32,000 nt of DNA from the NCBI GenBank assembly GCA_048886185.1, contig JBHLKY010000020.1, positions 12,392 to 44,391 of the forward strand. Direction: 5' to 3'. Made by a program: the position numbers and the translations under genes. The stretch comes from Candidatus Hermodarchaeota archaeon. Its GTDB lineage: Archaea; Asgardarchaeota; Heimdallarchaeia; Hodarchaeales; Hodarchaeaceae. Positions 2,463-17,360 of this stretch are shown here, one piece after another; positions within the stretch are counted from its first letter, which is position 1, and every line of letters starts with the position of its first letter. A model generated the notes under the pieces. That model ran no database searches and was not told the origin of the DNA. It was given only the letters and a program-made list of their open reading frames with translations.

Positions 2463-3716
2463 TTGAAAGTTTATTTGGATAATAATGCTTCGACAAGGGC
2501 TGATCCAGTAGTCATCGAAGCCATGATGCCTTATTTTTCAGATATTATTAGCCCACCAAGCTCTGATTATGGCCATTCTTTTGGAGTAGAAGCAAAACAG
2601 GCCCTTGATTCAGCACGAGAAACTCTTGCCTCTAAAATCAATGTCCATTCCTCTGAAATAGTTTTTACCTCTGGACAAGCAGAATCAAATAATTTTGCGA
2701 TAAAAGGTATAGCTCTAACAAATCTTAAAAGAAAGAGGAAAATCTTTATTGCATCAAGTGTTTCTCATTCTACAATTTTAGATAGCTTATCTTCTTTGAA
2801 AAAACATGGTTTCGAAGTAAAACTAATAAAAGTTGACTCAGAGGGTTTTATTGACCGTAGTCATTTACAAAAGCTTCTTACAGAAAATAATGAACTCCCT
2901 CTATTAGTTTCAATCCCTCATGGTAATGTTGAGATTGGTACTGTCGAAAATATTCAAGAAATTTCGTCTATCTGTCATGAATACAAAGTTCCGCTTCATG
3001 TTGAGGCGACGTACAGTTTTTGTAAAATCCCTCTCGATGCTTCTCTTGTAGATATGGCAACAATAACTAGTCACTTAATCCATGGACCTAAAGGCGTCGG
3101 AGCTCTCTATATTAAAAAAGGCCTCAAGATTCAAAGGTTAATTGATGGTGGTCTTCAGGAAAACAAAAAACGAGGAGGAACTGAAAATTTACCAGGAATC
3201 GTCGGTTTCGCCAAAGCAGCTGAATTGTACACACCAGCTATCAATGAGAAAGTTAGAGAACTTCGTGATTATCTGTGGGAAACCTTTAATAAAAAAATCT
3301 CAGATTTCAAAGTTACTGGCCCAACTGATAGAGATAAAAGATTACCAAATCATTTTTCAGTTGTAATTAACTATGTTGAGGGAGAATCTATCTTATTACA
3401 TTTAGATTTACTCGATTTTATGATAGCAACAGGATCTGCTTGTTCATCAAAGCAGTTAAAGGCAAGTCATGTTCTTTCAGCAATTGGACTACCAACAGAG
3501 GTCAGTCATGGAAGTGTTCGGGTAGGATTAAGCAAATATAATACCAAGGAAGAGATTAATCAATTTATCGATCATTTAGTGAACATTGTTGAAAGATTAA
3601 GGGCAATCAGTCCAATGAATGCAGATTTTATGAGAGAGTGGCAAGAAATGAAGGATCAGGGAGTTATAGAAGAAAATAATCATCATCATGATTTTGAAGA
3701 AATAGAGGATGAATAA
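2463..3716 (+). CDS. iscS: IscS/NifS-family cysteine desulfurase homolog with the PLP lysine replaced by Leu
   Basis: VYLDNNAST, FTSGQAESNN, HGPKGVGALY, RGGTENLPGI and the GSACSS Cys loop. TTG start. Overlaps or abuts iscU. Confidence 0.93.
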   Translation: MKVYLDNNASTRADPVVIEAMMPYFSDIISPPSSDYGHSFGVEAKQALDSARETLASKINVHSSEIVFTSGQAESNNFAIKGIALTNLKRKRKIFIASSVSHSTILDSLSSLKKHGFEVKLIKVDSEGFIDRSHLQKLLTENNELPLLVSIPHGNVEIGTVENIQEISSICHEYKVPLHVEATYSFCKIPLDASLVDMATITSHLIHGPKGVGALYIKKGLKIQRLIDGGLQENKKRGGTENLPGIVGFAKAAELYTPAINEKVRELRDYLWETFNKKISDFKVTGPTDRDKRLPNHFSVVINYVEGESILLHLDLLDFMIATGSACSSKQLKASHVLSAIGLPTEVSHGSVRVGLSKYNTKEEINQFIDHLVNIVERLRAISPMNADFMREWQEMKDQGVIEENNHHHDFEEIEDE

Positions 3717-4125
3717 GATGGCGAAAATTTATTCCGATGAGGTCATGAAATTATTTATGAATCCAAAGAATATGGGAGAAATTGAAAATCCCAGTGGTCT
3801 TGGAAAAGTAGGAAATCCAGTTTGTGGAGACGTAATGTGGATTTATATTAAAGTTGATGACGCTACAGATGTGATAGAAGATATCAAAGTCAAAACTTTT
3901 GGATGCGTTGCTGCAATTGCCACAAGTTCAAAAACAACAGAAATGGCTAAAGGAAAAACTCTTAAGGAAGCCTATGCGATAACGAAGAAACAGGTTGCTG
4001 ATGATTTAGGGGGTTTACCAAAACAAAAAATGCATTGCTCAAATCTAGCTGTTGATGCACTTCAAAGAGCAATCGTTAATTATTTTGAGAAGAAAGGTAG
4101 ATCTATTGAAGAATTAGAGGGATAA
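3709..4125 (+). CDS. iscU: IscU/NifU-N Fe-S cluster scaffold
   Basis: All three Cys motifs are present: NPVCGD, FGC and HCSNLA. The start is either the ATG at 3709 or the ATG at 3718. Confidence 0.95.
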   Translation: MNKMAKIYSDEVMKLFMNPKNMGEIENPSGLGKVGNPVCGDVMWIYIKVDDATDVIEDIKVKTFGCVAAIATSSKTTEMAKGKTLKEAYAITKKQVADDLGGLPKQKMHCSNLAVDALQRAIVNYFEKKGRSIEELEG

Positions 4126-4134
4126 GAGAATTCA

Positions 4135-4383
4135 ATGAAAACGGAAGAACCTGACTTTTTAATTGATATCACAGGGTTAACCTGCCCAATTCCGCTGATT
4201 AAGGCACGAAGGGCAATAAAGAGCGCCAGAAAAGGTCAGAAAATCAAATTTGTGGGAACAATTGAGGAGGAAGTATCACGAAAGGAAATTCTTATAGCCA
4301 TTTCTAATCTAAATCAGCGTTTAATAGAAAATATAGACCAGATTGAAGAAAAAAGATGGTATATATTAATTGAAAAAAATTAA
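4135..4383 (+). CDS. tusA: TusA/SirA-family sulfur carrier
   Basis: IDITGLTCPIP matches the CPxP motif. 82 aa, starting 9 nt after iscU. Confidence 0.85.
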   Translation: MKTEEPDFLIDITGLTCPIPLIKARRAIKSARKGQKIKFVGTIEEEVSRKEILIAISNLNQRLIENIDQIEEKRWYILIEKN

Positions 4384-6170: not shown

Positions 6171-7106
6171 TTATTTTGATGTTTTTTCTATCCATAATTC
6201 AAATAGTTCCTCGCCTAGATTTCTAAAGCTATCTAAATCTTCTATGATATCAATCCAATTTTTTGGAATCCCTCTTTCTCCCAAGAACGCTCCTGCAATT
6301 GCACCTGACATACAGGCTATTGTGTCTGTATCCCCTCCACAGCGTATTGAAGAATGTAGAACTTCGTAAAAATTTGTTCTATTACTTAAAAAATGATATA
6401 TAGCTGAAGGAACGGATTCTGGAGCTGTTACATTCACTCCAAGCTGGCTAACTATTCTATCAATAGGAGGAGGAGAACTTAAATAAGTTTCAATTCTTTC
6501 AAGTTTTTGTTGATATACTTTAGATAATTGCAACGTTCTAAGTTGCTCCATAAAATCCAAAACTTCAAAATTTTTTGGATCACTATTAACAGCTAGCGCC
6601 ACAGCATAAGATTGGAGAATAGCTCCCTGTCTTCCAAGTGTGTGAAAATGTGTGATCATTGATACTTTATCAGCTATTTCTTTTACTTTTTCTAAATCTT
6701 TGTGATAAAGTAAGCCTACTGGCCCAATTCTCATGGCAGCACCATTTCCCAACGACCCCTCACCATAGAAAGCTTCTTTAGCTGGTATATCCCATTGATT
6801 TCCATCCTTTATTTGCATTAAAATGGAAATAGTTCCAGGACCATAGCCTCTAGTATGATCAAAATTACGTACGAAAGTATCTGCCATATCTTGTCCGTTG
6901 AACTTCCCTTTATTACCCAATAAGGATTCCAAAACTCCTTTCATCATTTCACTATCATCAGTGTATCTCCCTCCAACCATCTGAAAATCTTCAACACGGA
7001 TAGTTTCATGAAACGATCCTTCATACTTGGCTCCCCATGAATCGCCTATCACACTTCCCAAGATAGAACCTAGGAATTTATCCTTTATCTGGTTATACTG
7101 GTTCAT
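6171..7106 (-). CDS. ADP-ribosylglycohydrolase (ARH/DraG family)
   Basis: GSVIGDSWG, YTDDSEM, GNGAAMR, THFH and GGDTDTIAC Mg-binding motifs are all intact. Confidence 0.93.
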   Translation of the reverse strand: MNQYNQIKDKFLGSILGSVIGDSWGAKYEGSFHETIRVEDFQMVGGRYTDDSEMMKGVLESLLGNKGKFNGQDMADTFVRNFDHTRGYGPGTISILMQIKDGNQWDIPAKEAFYGEGSLGNGAAMRIGPVGLLYHKDLEKVKEIADKVSMITHFHTLGRQGAILQSYAVALAVNSDPKNFEVLDFMEQLRTLQLSKVYQQKLERIETYLSSPPPIDRIVSQLGVNVTAPESVPSAIYHFLSNRTNFYEVLHSSIRCGGDTDTIACMSGAIAGAFLGERGIPKNWIDIIEDLDSFRNLGEELFELWIEKTSK

Positions 7107-9172
7107 TAGTAAAACCTAGCAAGAATCGCGTTCTTTTGAATAGCTAAAGCCTTTTCTTTCTTTGGATCTTTCTGATGGAACTGATCCAAAATATACTCTA
7201 GACTCTCCTTATCTAGTTCATAAATCTTAGCCACCAACGAATCAATTGTCGCTTGGATATAAGCTCTGTTTAAAAGGGACTGATCTGAACAGCTTGTCCC
7301 AAACTGATTATTAAGGGTCTCAAATTTAGGAAATAGATCCGCAACGTTTCTTACAATCTCCTGATAGATAATGTCGTGCTTAGATAACCGTGGCACAGGC
7401 ATATCATAGATGAAAAACATGTTCAAATTTGTAGTGACTTTCAGTCGAAGCAAATAATCGAATACAAAACTATTGAATACTCCACACAAATATAATAAAT
7501 CGGATTCACTGATCAGTCTTCGCCCCTCTGGATCATAAATTTTAGTTACAATTAAAGAATTTCCACAACAAACATTGCGCGGTATGATTGAAGCAATCAT
7601 TGTTCTTCGATTAGTACTCGCAGCGACTGCTCGAAATCCCAAACGATATTCGCTAAAATCTTGGTAATGTGAACCAAACTTAGACATAACATGTTCTTTT
7701 AGGATCCAGTACCTTGGTTCTTTGAACTTATGGGTATATTGCTCAATCATCTTCCCTTCATAGAGTGTAAGCCCTTTTTGTTCTGTGTTAAATAAGCTAC
7801 TATCGAGTGAAATATCAAATTCCCTAAAAAAGTTAACCCTCCAAGAGTCAGGGATTGATACTCTTAGAGGAGGGTGCTGGTATAGTTTTTGTGTAAGTTC
7901 CACATCTCTGAATCTCTTGAATTCCAAAATAGACCATGATGAAGGGGATAAACACTTAATTATTTCCCATTCAATCGAAATTGTCTTACTATCAATTTCT
8001 TTAATAATATCTGGATCGTGTAACATAAAAGCTGCATCAAATAATCTTGTTTTTCCTTTTTTTCTAAAAATTAAGAGATCAAACTTGAAAGATTTATGAA
8101 TAGAGTGAAAAATACCTTTACGATTCTCAAAAGAATATAGTTTACGAACCTCATTTTTTTCGAATAACAACTCTCTTAATCCTTTAGTACCAGCATCAGT
8201 ATGGAACCCAGATGGAATTATAACTCCACAATATCCTTGAGGCTTTAATAGGCAATAGATCCTCTCAAGGAACAGTTTATAAAGATTAATATCCCCACTT
8301 ACCGTTTTCAACCTGTTACTTCCCAAAATTTTACCAGATTGATATTTGTATTCCTTTCGATAATAATTCTTAGTTATTGAGAATGATTGCTTATATTCTT
8401 GCCATTCCAATCTGATATCTTCTTTTTCAAGTAATTCATGTATGATTTGTTTCGCCTCTTTTTTATCAACACCATATTTTGTCAATCGAGAATCATATTG
8501 AGAAAAAAATTCCTTCTCAATTGGTTTATAGATATTCCAAGGAGGATTACCTATACATAAATCAAACCCTTTACTTTCAGTAATTTCAGGAAATTCTACG
8601 TTCCAATGGAAAGTTTTTAACTTAGGAAATTGTTTCTTTTGAAATTTCTTCTTACTTTCTATAGAACCTAGTAGTGAATTGCCACATCGAATGTTTGTAC
8701 TTATTTTGGAACTTACATTACTGTCATTATCCTTAATTAACTCCAAAAAGATGGAAAATCTAGTCCTACATTCATCAATCGCAAGAGGAGAGAGATCGAC
8801 ACCATAGATATTTTTCCCAATAATCCATTTTCTTATTTGAAATGAATCCCAATCACAAATATCAATCATAACTAGATAATCATATATTGTTTCTAGTGTT
8901 AATATTGCTTCTAAAAGAAAATGTCCTGTTCCCACTGCAGGATCAAGTATTTTAATGGTTTTTACAACATCCATTAGATATTGCAGTTGTTGCTTGTTTA
9001 ATTGATTTAAAATATTCTCAATGTCGCCTTTATATTGAAACTTCGTCCCAAAATGATCATTTACTTTGTCAAGAACATAAGGGAATATTGTATATCGACA
9101 AAGATATGTTGTTATATTTTTTGGGGTATATATAACACCTAAATCCTTGATTTTGAGTGAAGACATCCTCAC
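7106..9172 (-). CDS. N6-adenine DNA methyltransferase, Eco57I/type IIG-like MTase plus TRD, no nuclease domain seen
   Basis: Motif X GVIYTP, motif I DPAVGTGHFL, GVDLSP, motif IV GNPPW and a C-terminal TRD-like region. The likely start is the ATG at 9166-9164, preceded by AGGTGAGG. The stop overlaps the ARH start (TAATG). Confidence 0.88.
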   Translation of the reverse strand: MRMSSLKIKDLGVIYTPKNITTYLCRYTIFPYVLDKVNDHFGTKFQYKGDIENILNQLNKQQLQYLMDVVKTIKILDPAVGTGHFLLEAILTLETIYDYLVMIDICDWDSFQIRKWIIGKNIYGVDLSPLAIDECRTRFSIFLELIKDNDSNVSSKISTNIRCGNSLLGSIESKKKFQKKQFPKLKTFHWNVEFPEITESKGFDLCIGNPPWNIYKPIEKEFFSQYDSRLTKYGVDKKEAKQIIHELLEKEDIRLEWQEYKQSFSITKNYYRKEYKYQSGKILGSNRLKTVSGDINLYKLFLERIYCLLKPQGYCGVIIPSGFHTDAGTKGLRELLFEKNEVRKLYSFENRKGIFHSIHKSFKFDLLIFRKKGKTRLFDAAFMLHDPDIIKEIDSKTISIEWEIIKCLSPSSWSILEFKRFRDVELTQKLYQHPPLRVSIPDSWRVNFFREFDISLDSSLFNTEQKGLTLYEGKMIEQYTHKFKEPRYWILKEHVMSKFGSHYQDFSEYRLGFRAVAASTNRRTMIASIIPRNVCCGNSLIVTKIYDPEGRRLISESDLLYLCGVFNSFVFDYLLRLKVTTNLNMFFIYDMPVPRLSKHDIIYQEIVRNVADLFPKFETLNNQFGTSCSDQSLLNRAYIQATIDSLVAKIYELDKESLEYILDQFHQKDPKKEKALAIQKNAILARFY

Positions 9173-16232: not shown

Positions 16233-17360
16233 TTGGAATCTATTCACATGAAACTCAATAGCTCTAATATTAGATGGATCATGAAATTAACAAAACCAGA
16301 GCGAGATAAAGGGTATACACGAACATTTTACTCGTACCCAGCAAAGTTTCAAGCGAAATTACCAAGAGGATTGATTGAACGATTTACTACTGAGGGAGAT
16401 CTTGTTCTAGATCCATTTGTAGGAGGGGGAACTACTGGATTAGAAGCAATGCTTCTAGATAGAAGATTTCTTGGATATGACATCAATCCATTTGCAATTC
16501 TCGTTTCTAGTGTAAAAACTACCTATCTTGATTCTAATATCTTAAAAGCTTATCTTGTAACAATACTTTCACAAGTAAGTGAAACGATAGACCCTAAATG
16601 CGATATTCTAGATTATGAGGATAAAGTATGCCTCGGATCTTCGATTTCAAATGAAATTAATTCTATTTTTGCAATGATTTCAACCATTTCTAAGGAGCTT
16701 TCTTTTAAACAATTTTTTGAACTAGCTCTTATCCATTCCATCAAAATTGTTGGAAGAAGGGATTTTGAAATCAAAAATAAAAATATCTCTATTATTCCAA
16801 TCTTTGAACGTAAAGCAAGTAAAATGATACGAGAAATTTCATCCCTTCCACGAAGCCCTAAATTTACCCCCGTTTTTAAATTGGCTTCAAACCAATATAT
16901 GGAACAAGAAAATGACTCAGTTGACTTAATAGTGACTTCACCTCCCTATAAAGACAAGGACATTGAATATCAAAAAGTTCAGATCCAAAGACGATCTTTG
17001 AGGAAGTCAAAACGATCTGATGTGATTTCTAATATACTGAAAATCAATCCTCTTTCAAAAATAGAACTCTGTTGGACTGGTAGATCTGGAAGAAATTATT
17101 GGGAGAACAGTCTAAAATCACTGAAAGAGTGTTACCGACTGCTTAAACCTCTTAAATATGCCTTTTTTTGGCTTGGTTTCAAAAATACATCTGATATACA
17201 AACATTTGAATTACAGTTAACAAAGGTAGGTTTTCAAGTTTTAAAGTCAATTCGAGTGAGATTAAGCGATGATCGTGCTGCTTCAGGGCGTTCAACTCAT
17301 CATGGAAAATCAACAGGAATGATGAGTCATGATTACCTTTTTACCGTTGGAAAAGAATAG
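16233..17360 (+). CDS. Orphan DNA methyltransferase, probably N4-cytosine (motif I before SPPY)
   Basis: YPAKF, VLDPFVGGGTT (motif I), GYDINP and DLIVTSPPY (motif IV). The TTG start is uncertain, with in-frame ATGs a few codons downstream. Confidence 0.85.
   Translation: MESIHMKLNSSNIRWIMKLTKPERDKGYTRTFYSYPAKFQAKLPRGLIERFTTEGDLVLDPFVGGGTTGLEAMLLDRRFLGYDINPFAILVSSVKTTYLDSNILKAYLVTILSQVSETIDPKCDILDYEDKVCLGSSISNEINSIFAMISTISKELSFKQFFELALIHSIKIVGRRDFEIKNKNISIIPIFERKASKMIREISSLPRSPKFTPVFKLASNQYMEQENDSVDLIVTSPPYKDKDIEYQKVQIQRRSLRKSKRSDVISNILKINPLSKIELCWTGRSGRNYWENSLKSLKECYRLLKPLKYAFFWLGFKNTSDIQTFELQLTKVGFQVLKSIRVRLSDDRAASGRSTHHGKSTGMMSHDYLFTVGKE

Follow-up and report, generated by a model that had tools for sequence, protein, structure and literature searches.

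A conserved IscS homolog without the Schiff-base lysine in an iscS-iscU-tusA operon of an Asgard archaeon

How does an iron-sulfur (Fe-S) scaffold obtain its sulfur when the cysteine desulfurase homolog encoded beside it has lost its Schiff-base lysine? The question has been asked in a review of the IscS-IscU pair of Archaeoglobus fulgidus (PMC8918507), and it is raised again by the stretch of DNA analyzed here, a window of 32,000 nucleotides (nt) from contig JBHLKY010000020.1 of a Candidatus Hermodarchaeota archaeon, whose genome we call G000. Three closely spaced plus-strand genes in the window form an iscS-iscU-tusA operon, and the first of them encodes a type I cysteine desulfurase homolog with Leu205 at the position of the lysine. 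We think it probable that this is a minimal (MIS-type) Fe-S operon in which the Lys-less IscS serves as a conserved, noncatalytic partner of IscU and is no longer a desulfurase dependent on pyridoxal 5'-phosphate (PLP).

Leu205 lies in the motif T202-S203-H204-L205-I206-H207-G-P-K-G, and an earlier note, made from the DNA letters alone, had placed it where the lysine should be. Our alignment bears this out. In a phmmer search of the PDB, 'tsHLihGPKG' aligned without gaps to 'tAHKmyGPKG' of the best match, 9wer (E 2e-91), which sets L205 at the Schiff-base position. Entry 9wer is one of seven 406-amino-acid (aa) 'cysteine desulfurase' entries that together make up the best PDB sequence match (9wep, 9wer, 9wew, 9wf8, 9wfb, 9wfe, and 9wfy) and that differ by pocket point changes, e.g., GGTE/GGIE, DAAQ/DAVQ, and TAHK/SAHK. 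We compared residues between 62 members of the Hodarchaeales-type clade to which the window's protein belongs and 105 Lys-containing type I homologs. At position 205 (E. coli K206) the clade carries Leu (55 sequences), His (6), or Tyr (1) and never Lys, versus Lys in 105 of 105 homologs. P-numbered relatives below are the 120 closest proteins from a collection of 5.8 billion; the lysine is missing from every one of P0001 to P0056, which share 58 to 100% identity and carry annotations such as Hodarchaeales or Heimdallarchaeota.

The codon itself is the same in two assemblies. Run X1 (depth, 48.8) yielded Logan contigs with 0 differences over positions 2903 to 4383, and those of run X4 covered the whole stretch with 3 differences, all in tusA (4261, 4281, and 4302). 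The four runs examined come from one study, of which X1 may be the source sample, and contigs of X2 and X3 covered hardly any of the stretch. Among ten relatives with Leu at this position, the residue is encoded by TTA, CTA, CTT, TTG, or CTC. The earlier note had judged a miscall unlikely, and the shared codon, the clade-wide absence of Lys, and the five synonymous Leu codons agree with it. The reading frame is intact and full length, and its ratio of nonsynonymous to synonymous substitution rates (dN/dS) against three relatives is 0.04 to 0.08 (Nei-Gojobori, with dS saturated), similar to the 0.05 to 0.06 of iscU. The gene is thus under strong purifying selection. The genes for glycyl-tRNA synthetase and agmatinase on its flanks show synteny with the closed 4.94-Mb genome CP070695, so the contig is not a contaminant.

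Loss of the lysine is accompanied by changes throughout the cofactor pocket. Following the structures of E. coli IscS and SufS, we take T76 and S203 to contact the phosphate, D180 the pyridine N1, and Q183 the O3', with His102 stacking on the ring, Arg binding the substrate carboxylate, and Thr240 reaching the phosphate from the partner subunit. In the clade, the Gly-Thr of the GGTE/GATE phosphate loop is replaced by Q72 (60 of 62; Gly in 95 of the 105 Lys-containing homologs) and A73 (E. coli T76; 54 of 62, versus Thr in 96 of 105). The HVEATY segment reported by the earlier note was read in the sequence and in the alignment of relatives: position 184 (E. coli Q183) is Tyr in 53 clade members and Phe in 6, compared to Gln in 101 of 105, and position 181 (E. 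coli D180) is Glu in 34 and Asp in 28, compared to Asp in all 105. Position 202 (E. coli S203) is more variable (Thr 25, Ala 19, Ser 11, Glu 6; Lys-containing homologs, Ser 86, Asn 15). V156 (E. coli N155), present in 55 of 62, is weak evidence on its own, as many archaeal Lys-containing homologs have Gln or Glu there (Lys-containing homologs, Asn 76, Gln 20, Glu 6).

Other parts of the active site are retained. His102, Cys327, and Arg353 are present in 62 of 62 clade members, His204 in 61, and Thr240 in 58, and the mobile-loop sequence GSAC327SS is as the earlier note gave it. A conserved Lys, Arg, His, and Cys set is described for desulfurases in a review (PMC8918507). The clade has also gained residues of its own. 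Cys187, three residues past Y184, occupies a position that is Gly (51) or Thr (48) in the Lys-containing homologs; S101 is conserved where 104 of 105 canonical sequences have Glu; H297 is likewise clade specific and conserved; and a C-terminal extension, mostly a gap in the Lys-containing homologs, is conserved in 53 to 62 of the 62 members. Because the replacement residues are themselves conserved across the clade, selection has remodelled the pocket, which is not simply decaying; the set Q72, A73, V156, Y184, and L205 is also more hydrophobic.

No substitute for the missing lysine was apparent. Among the 62 clade sequences, no clade-specific Lys was found within the pocket segments; the only two are K333, in the mobile Cys loop six residues past Cys327, and K397, in the tail, and we rejected a relocated Schiff-base lysine. 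We also rejected K210 of the GPKG motif, which the earlier note had listed as a possible stand-in, since it is nearly invariant in canonical enzymes and is present in the inactive A. fulgidus IscS as well.

The remodelled protein keeps the fold of its family. Pfam Aminotran_5 (PF00266) matched with 200 bits over profile positions 1 to 371, the full profile, which places the protein in the class V aminotransferase fold. It falls under every NCBIfam equivalog cut-off, with NifS (TIGR03402) the best match at 395.6 (cut-off, 530.75) and IscS (TIGR02006) at 307.7 (cut-off, 643.2). Measured against type I cysteine desulfurases (EC 2.8.1.7), it has the nucleophilic Cys of the mobile loop (C327) and the substrate Arg (R353), and it lacks the Schiff-base Lys of S-x-H-K and the phosphate-loop Thr, Asp, and Gln contacts. 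An AlphaFold2 model was of high quality (predicted local distance difference test [pLDDT], 89.2; predicted template-modelling score, 0.88), with low confidence solely at the Cys loop (326 to 332, pLDDT <50), as would be expected of a flexible loop, and at the tail (403 to 417). Foldseek matched the model to 4eb5_A, one of its best structural hits (template-modelling [TM] score, 0.86/0.95; root mean square deviation, 1.8), and to NFS1, IscS, and NifS structures at TM scores of 0.8 to 0.95; for NFS1, A. fulgidus IscS, and E. coli IscS, the scores were 0.84 to 0.95.

The two genes downstream are intact partners of the kind the earlier note described. The iscU start overlaps the iscS stop, and the predicted IscU has the full scaffold ligand set (C39, D41, C66, H109, and C110), scoring 178.7 against NCBIfam NifU_clost (cut-off, 187.9). 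TusA carries the CPxP motif C17-P-I-P20, in which C17, P18, and P20 are invariant across 10 relatives; a predicted-complex run of the Lys-less IscS with TusA scored 0.26 (mark, 0.32), a value that speaks neither way on binding. The gene 3' of tusA encodes a membrane protein and is convergent, and there is no DsrE2 (PF13686) gene in the window's operon. Its neighbors encode agmatinase, a CTP_transf_1-like membrane protein, and a phosphoribosyltransferase; with an adjoining IscS-like and IscU-like pair and no HscBA, Fdx, or IscA in the operon, the locus has the makeup of an MIS system. The iscS-iscU-tusA order is retained in the closed relative, in all 6 other loci of the genus that were inspected, and in a Thorarchaeota-type relative. 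Coordinates are collected in Table 1.

Table 1. Genes of the operon and residues of the Lys-less IscS, with their positions in the window
Feature	Position	Strand	Details
iscS, type I cysteine desulfurase homolog without Schiff-base Lys	2463..3716	+	417 aa, TTG start; Pfam Aminotran_5
iscU, scaffold	3709..4125	+	138 aa, or 135 aa from ATG at 3718; Pfam NifU_N 154.6 bits
tusA	4135..4383	+	82 aa; starts 9 nt past iscU stop; Pfam TusA 40.7 bits
Q72-A73, replacing Gly-Thr of GGTE/GATE phosphate loop	2676..2681	+	Residue comparison
V156 (E. coli N155 position)	2928..2930	+	Residue comparison
E181-A-T-Y184, replacing D-A-x-Q (pyridine N1 and O3' contacts)	3003..3014	+	Residue comparison
Cys187, conserved Cys particular to the clade	3021..3023	+	C in 61/62
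Leu205, codon TTA, Schiff-base Lys position	3075..3077	+	Gapless alignment to Lys
Cys327, mobile loop ATGSAC327SSK	3441..3443	+	Invariant in 62/62 clade, 105/105 canonical
Arg353 (E. coli R354, substrate carboxylate contact), kept	3519..3521	+	R in 62/62; A. fulgidus IscS has Leu
Clade-specific C-terminal extension: F389-M-R-E-W393, K397, G400, H407-H408-H409, acidic end	3627..3713	+	

Elsewhere in the window, an Eco57I-type restriction-modification methylase fusion (688 aa) lies at 7106 to 9172 on the minus strand and a separate N6/N4 DNA methylase at 16233 to 17360 on the plus strand. Two relatives (L127 and L128) also have Eco57I-type genes close to their iscS cassettes, which is probably coincidence.

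The importance of the operon depends on what else the genome offers. The G000 assembly (4.84 Mb, 75 contigs) is 96% complete. Profile searches of G000 gave no SUFBD_core match, while 14 of 14 control genomes matched, and tblastn across the genome found no SmsB. The closed relative G055 carries smsB (421 aa; SUFBD_core, 132.7 bits) and smsC, and the genes on either side of the two have orthologs on contig C4 of G000. The matching G000 interval is uninterrupted, with the orthologs ~0.8 kb apart and no N, so we rejected an assembly gap as the explanation for the missing SufB. At these sites (G000 C4:30698-31498 and G055 C1:2235567-2238891, or L130:6568-9892), a 425-aa gene adjoining smsC-smsB is missing from G000 too. 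Given that SufB/SmsB is missing from an uninterrupted syntenic site and that the window's IscU is the single NifU_N match in G000, IscU is the only de novo Fe-S scaffold found in this genome. The window's gene is likewise its one type I IscS homolog. Since the pair includes the only scaffold found and SmsCB is cleanly absent from its syntenic site, we concluded that the IscS-IscU pair is presumably essential and not a spare paralog. Carriers are represented in G000 by two Mrp/NBP35-type ATPases and one Nfu; no A-type carrier was found in the genome.

The earlier note had also proposed a search of the genome for another Lys-containing desulfurase. That search turned up no second type I IscS and one SufS-type gene, on C5 (C5:132407-133651, or L001:1429-2673), which has both the Lys (A-S-M-H-K) and the Cys (R-S-G-F-H-C) and no adjoining scaffold gene. 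It is the only desulfurase gene in G000 with both residues intact, is present in 17 of the 21 other genomes of the genus, and is missing from the closed genome G055. An 89-aa open reading frame (ORF) overlaps it by 4 nt (L001:2670-2939); this ORF matches nothing in Pfam or NCBIfam, has a single Cys (L-P-E-C-R-D), and could be an unrecognized sulfur acceptor. A radical S-adenosylmethionine gene on C5 is convergent to it. Sulfur-relay genes are found at two further sites. Two paralogous rhodanese-TusA fusions of ~254 aa lie <10 kb apart on C2 (C2:263430-263642 and C2:272667-272876; L012:958-1722), and C1 carries a trio of weakly DsrE2-like, TusA, and FlpD/MvhD-like genes (C1:54212-55513, or L117:1429-2730) that may be a second relay module tied to a heterodisulfide-reductase-type electron path. 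The weak DrsE_2-like match on C1 is the only one in G000, and DsrE (PF02635) had no match in the genome.

We next consider how the Lys-less form is distributed. In a survey of 78 Heimdallarchaeia genomes, an IscS homolog was found in 56 and SUFBD in 34; within the genus-level group of the window (21 genomes besides G000), the numbers were 16 and 9. SUFBD_core is patchy across Heimdallarchaeia, with one genus-level group at 0 of 9. Other Heimdallarchaeia families have other degenerate IscS forms, including K-to-T forms with TusA nearby and forms that have lost His or Arg, and some of them carry canonical copies as well. For instance, differently degenerate IscS genes adjoin IscU at L027 to L030 (family f4) and at L023 (G061). 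Some of these have lost the His of the H-K motif (D-R, S-R, D-K, or Q-K) and have Leu for the substrate Arg, and one has an N-D motif like that of A. fulgidus IscS, with TusA upstream. We also scored 103 type I genes, from Heimdallarchaeia loci and 80 species-representative loci, for a TusA gene within 2 kb: 28 of the 35 Lys-less genes have one, compared to 0 of 66 H-K genes.

To place the clade, we built trees with FastTree and IQ-TREE (LG+C20, quick mode) from a sample in which A. fulgidus IscS was represented by similar bacterial sequences and not by itself. The window's protein falls within a Lys-less Asgard clade (Shimodaira-Hasegawa-like approximate likelihood ratio test [SH-aLRT], 95) that is sister (SH-aLRT, 98) to a canonical H-K clade of the P0062 type. 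Elsewhere in the tree are the K-to-T group and the bacterial sequences resembling A. fulgidus IscS, which have an N-D or similar motif and a replaced Arg, and well-supported branches force at least seven changes of Lys state. In the canonical sister clade, the cassette IscS(K)-IscU-TusA-DrsE_2 is present in P0062 and P0067; the basal Hodarchaeales-type P0049 has the same order with a Lys-less IscS, and Thorarchaeota-type P0060 also has TusA in its cassette. Because the canonical sister clade shares the IscU-TusA-DsrE2 neighbors, the linkage to sulfur carriers predates loss of the lysine in this lineage. In the Thorarchaeota-type P0058 to P0061, K to L is the sole departure from canonical. The most economical reading of the tree and loci starts from an ancestral canonical cassette that included TusA-DsrE2. 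Lys would have been lost first, as in the Thorarchaeota type; remodelling of the pocket and gain of Cys187 and the tail would have followed in the Hodarchaeales type, and loss of DsrE2, in the window's lineage, would have come last. P0057, a Lys-containing, Odinarchaeota-type sequence standing alone, is an anomaly nested in the Lys-less clade.

A further ORF accompanies some of these cassettes. In several Asgard relatives, an ORF of 126 to 151 aa overlaps the iscS start (L129:3624-4004, L131:3124-3504, L127:3592-4008, and L132:3044-3499); it has a weak helix-turn-helix (HTH) match and a C-terminal C-x2-H...C-x2-C motif, and it could serve to regulate the cassette by sensing redox state or Fe-S clusters. 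Its homolog in G000 is at C33:18298-18669 and not upstream of iscS.

By analogy with the A. fulgidus IscS-IscU complex, the noncatalytic role that we favor would work as follows. The Lys-less IscS dimer would hold IscU, and Cys327 would act as the fourth ligand of the nascent [2Fe-2S] cluster or as a persulfide carrier for it. Sulfur would come not from PLP chemistry on this IscS but from free sulfide or from a persulfide of the co-encoded TusA, which could be loaded by the rhodanese-TusA fusions or by the SufS-type desulfurase. Given the SufS-type gene here and in most genomes of the genus, such a route does not imply independence from cysteine.

Several observations weigh against this proposal. 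The invariant His102, His204, Thr240' (from the partner subunit), and Arg353 are unexpected for an empty pocket and leave room for noncovalent PLP, pyridoxamine 5'-phosphate (PMP), or another ligand. Position 181 is still Asp in 28 of the 62 clade sequences, and the Glu that replaces it in the others is a conservative substitution. Cysteine may still be the ultimate source of sulfur through the SufS-type enzyme, and in canonical systems sulfur runs from IscS to TusA. The link to TusA is also imperfect: three Lys-less relatives (P0053, P0092, and L039) have a nearby IscU and no TusA, and the two canonical relatives P0062 and P0067 carry TusA-DsrE2, so the dead form does not require TusA, nor is TusA confined to it. 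Moreover, the sampled loci are mutually related and were picked by sequence patterns, which means that the TusA counts are not independent, and the role proposed for this clade draws on sequence and analogy. The earlier note had gone further in calling the protein more degenerate than A. fulgidus IscS and possibly PLP-free. The first part stands, as more contacts are lost here (Thr, Gln, Lys, and, in about half of the clade, Asp). The second is weakened both by the four invariant residues just named and by A. fulgidus IscS, which binds PMP without the lysine.

A stronger version of the proposal is conceivable but doubtful. It holds that the sole scaffold is served by a remodelled, cofactor-free IscS whose Cys327 is fed by TusA persulfide or sulfide, with Cys187 and the His-rich tail taking part in iron or sulfur delivery. 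If true, it would amount to an ISC/MIS (iron-sulfur cluster/minimal) pathway that does not depend on a cysteine desulfurase, and the canonical sister cassette would provide a natural before-and-after comparison.

Among the alternatives, the one that fares best reverses the flow: the operon would chiefly relay persulfide sulfur toward thio-cofactors or the thiolation of tRNA, with Cys327, loaded by the SufS-type enzyme or by rhodanese-TusA, passing sulfur outward to TusA and not into IscU. Conservation of TusA in the operon, the presence of other relay parts in the genome, and the canonical sister clade, whose apparently active IscS sits with TusA-DsrE2 in keeping with the known IscS-to-TusA direction, all fit such a relay. 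We nevertheless regard it as unlikely, because IscU retains every scaffold ligand and no other scaffold was found, so that Fe-S assembly must go via this operon, and because several Lys-less relatives do without TusA, whereas none lacks IscU where the contig is long enough.

A slow PLP-dependent desulfuration might instead persist, with the cofactor bound noncovalently and another base (His204, His207, or loop Lys333) acting for the lysine. This would account for the invariant His102, His204, Thr240, Arg353, and Cys327, for the Asp181 of 28 clade members, and for the clade-specific Lys333 six residues past Cys327 in the mobile loop, and A. fulgidus IscS sets a precedent by binding PMP/PLP without the lysine (PMC8918507). 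That same protein is inactive, however, and even its D199K variant carries PMP rather than PLP (PMC8918507). Together with the clade-wide Q-A for Gly-Thr, Tyr for the O3' Gln, and Leu205, and with pocket segments devoid of any clade-specific Lys, this makes residual activity quite improbable.

It could also be that the former pocket and the His-rich tail took on a new ligand or metal role, e.g., in delivering iron to IscU, which would make the protein more than a passive ligand donor. The conservation of the replacement residues, which points to remodelling rather than decay, is consistent with such a role, as are the new Cys187 near Y184 and the FMREW...HHH extension, both missing in canonical homologs. 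The case is built from sequence, though; the tail is predicted to be disordered and matches no known metal-site motif, and His-rich acidic tails are common and often nonspecific. We therefore consider this very unlikely as the main function. An artefact of sequencing or assembly, or a pseudogene in decay, can be dismissed, as the matching assemblies, the clade-wide loss, the codon variety, and the low dN/dS of an intact, full-length frame refute it and nothing was found in its favor.

A Lys-less IscS is in itself of a known kind, exemplified by A. fulgidus IscS and Methanosarcina acetivorans IscS1. What is new is, first, an independent Asgard lineage of loss, with a pocket degraded step by step, that, judged by its residues, has substitutions of its own (His and Arg kept; Gly-Thr, Asn, Asp, Gln, and Lys changed); second, a canonical Lys-containing sister clade with the same IscU-TusA-DsrE2 neighbors; and third, the combination in G000 of the clade-specific Cys187 and FMREW...HHH tail with no DsrE2 and no alternative scaffold. 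In the literature on Asgard IscS/IscU and on inactive desulfurases with TusA/DsrE, we found no account of this clade or of its association with sulfur carriers. Because the dead pair here includes the only scaffold found, the question of how such a pair obtains sulfur becomes more tractable, and the canonical cassette, the relatives with K to L alone, and the remodelled Hodarchaeales form make a natural series for biochemistry. The finding also bears on Fe-S assembly in the archaeal relatives of eukaryotes: the Hodarchaeales-type sequences are annotated to the archaeal lineage closest to eukaryotes, an Asgard association of NFS1 and ISCU was reported in a recent study (PMC12872458), and MIS has been called the least studied Fe-S system (PMC13066941).

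The closest described counterpart is the A. fulgidus IscS2-IscU pair (PDB 4EB5, 4EB7, and 4HVK; D199K, 4R5F). Its IscS has been described as a paralog of cysteine desulfurase that is inactive and has Asp for Lys, which binds PMP and whose loop Cys is the fourth ligand of a [2Fe-2S] cluster on IscU (PMC7585200, PMC8918507, PMC13066941); the earlier note had likewise cited the Asp, the low or absent activity, and the Cys ligand. Its motif reads 'SSNDIYGPKG' in 4eb5/4r5f, the second-best PDB sequence match to the window's protein (E 5e-86). Both share the type I fold without the Schiff-base lysine, a conserved loop Cys, and an adjoining IscU with three Cys and an Asp, so that in these features the window's pair matches the inactive-paralog type. 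Their substitutions differ: A. fulgidus IscS has Asn for His, Asp for Lys, Ser for Gln, and Leu for Arg and keeps Thr, Asn-Asn, and Asp, whereas the window's protein keeps His204 and Arg353 and has Q-A for Gly-Thr, Val for Asn, Glu for Asp, Tyr for Gln, and Leu for Lys, along with Cys187 and a C-terminal extension specific to its clade. Common descent with A. fulgidus IscS is not indicated, as the sampled A. fulgidus-like sequences branch separately. In addition, the window operon has tusA, whereas no TusA partner of the A. fulgidus pair is described in the literature examined.

The second known example, M. acetivorans IscS1, lacks the lysine (PMC7585200) and belongs with a K-to-T group in which a Lys-less IscS adjoins IscU and TusA, as in the window. 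This group is a separate clade (99, a starred support value) with IEDFP for the stacking His, Q to H, and K to T. Its TusA-DsrE2 genes lie upstream, and its IscU is fused to an FeS_assembly_P domain; the Methanosarcinaceae locus L038 has the order TusA-DrsE_2-IscS(K to T)-IscU, and the wider group TusA-DsrE2-IscS-IscU(-DUF59). Relative to the general cassette type of Lys-less IscS, IscU, TusA, and DsrE2, the window has TusA and no DsrE2.

Sister to the Lys-less Asgard clade is the canonical Asgard cassette (P0062/P0067, annotated as Heimdallarchaeota), whose IscS shares ~50% identity with the window's protein and the same IscS-IscU-TusA order. It has a full pocket (GGTE, H, D, Q, and HK with an AAG codon), no C-terminal extension, DrsE_2 after TusA, and the putative HTH/Cys-rich regulator ORF upstream. 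E. coli IscS-TusA (PDB 3LVJ) and IscS-IscU (3LVL) have the same fold (TM score, 0.84 to 0.85) and represent the same three protein families, but in E. coli both TusA and IscU receive sulfur from IscS, which is catalytically active with PLP; the genes are not ordered iscS-iscU-tusA there, and HscBA and Fdx, both missing here, are part of the ISC operon. Finally, the MIS system (MisS-MisU; M. acetivorans IscS2-IscU2) offers a chaperone-free, two-component IscS/IscU core in an archaeon (PMC13066941, PMC12442378). There, the desulfurase M. acetivorans IscS2 is PLP dependent and active (PMC7585200), whereas in the window an operon with such a core is headed by a protein without the lysine.

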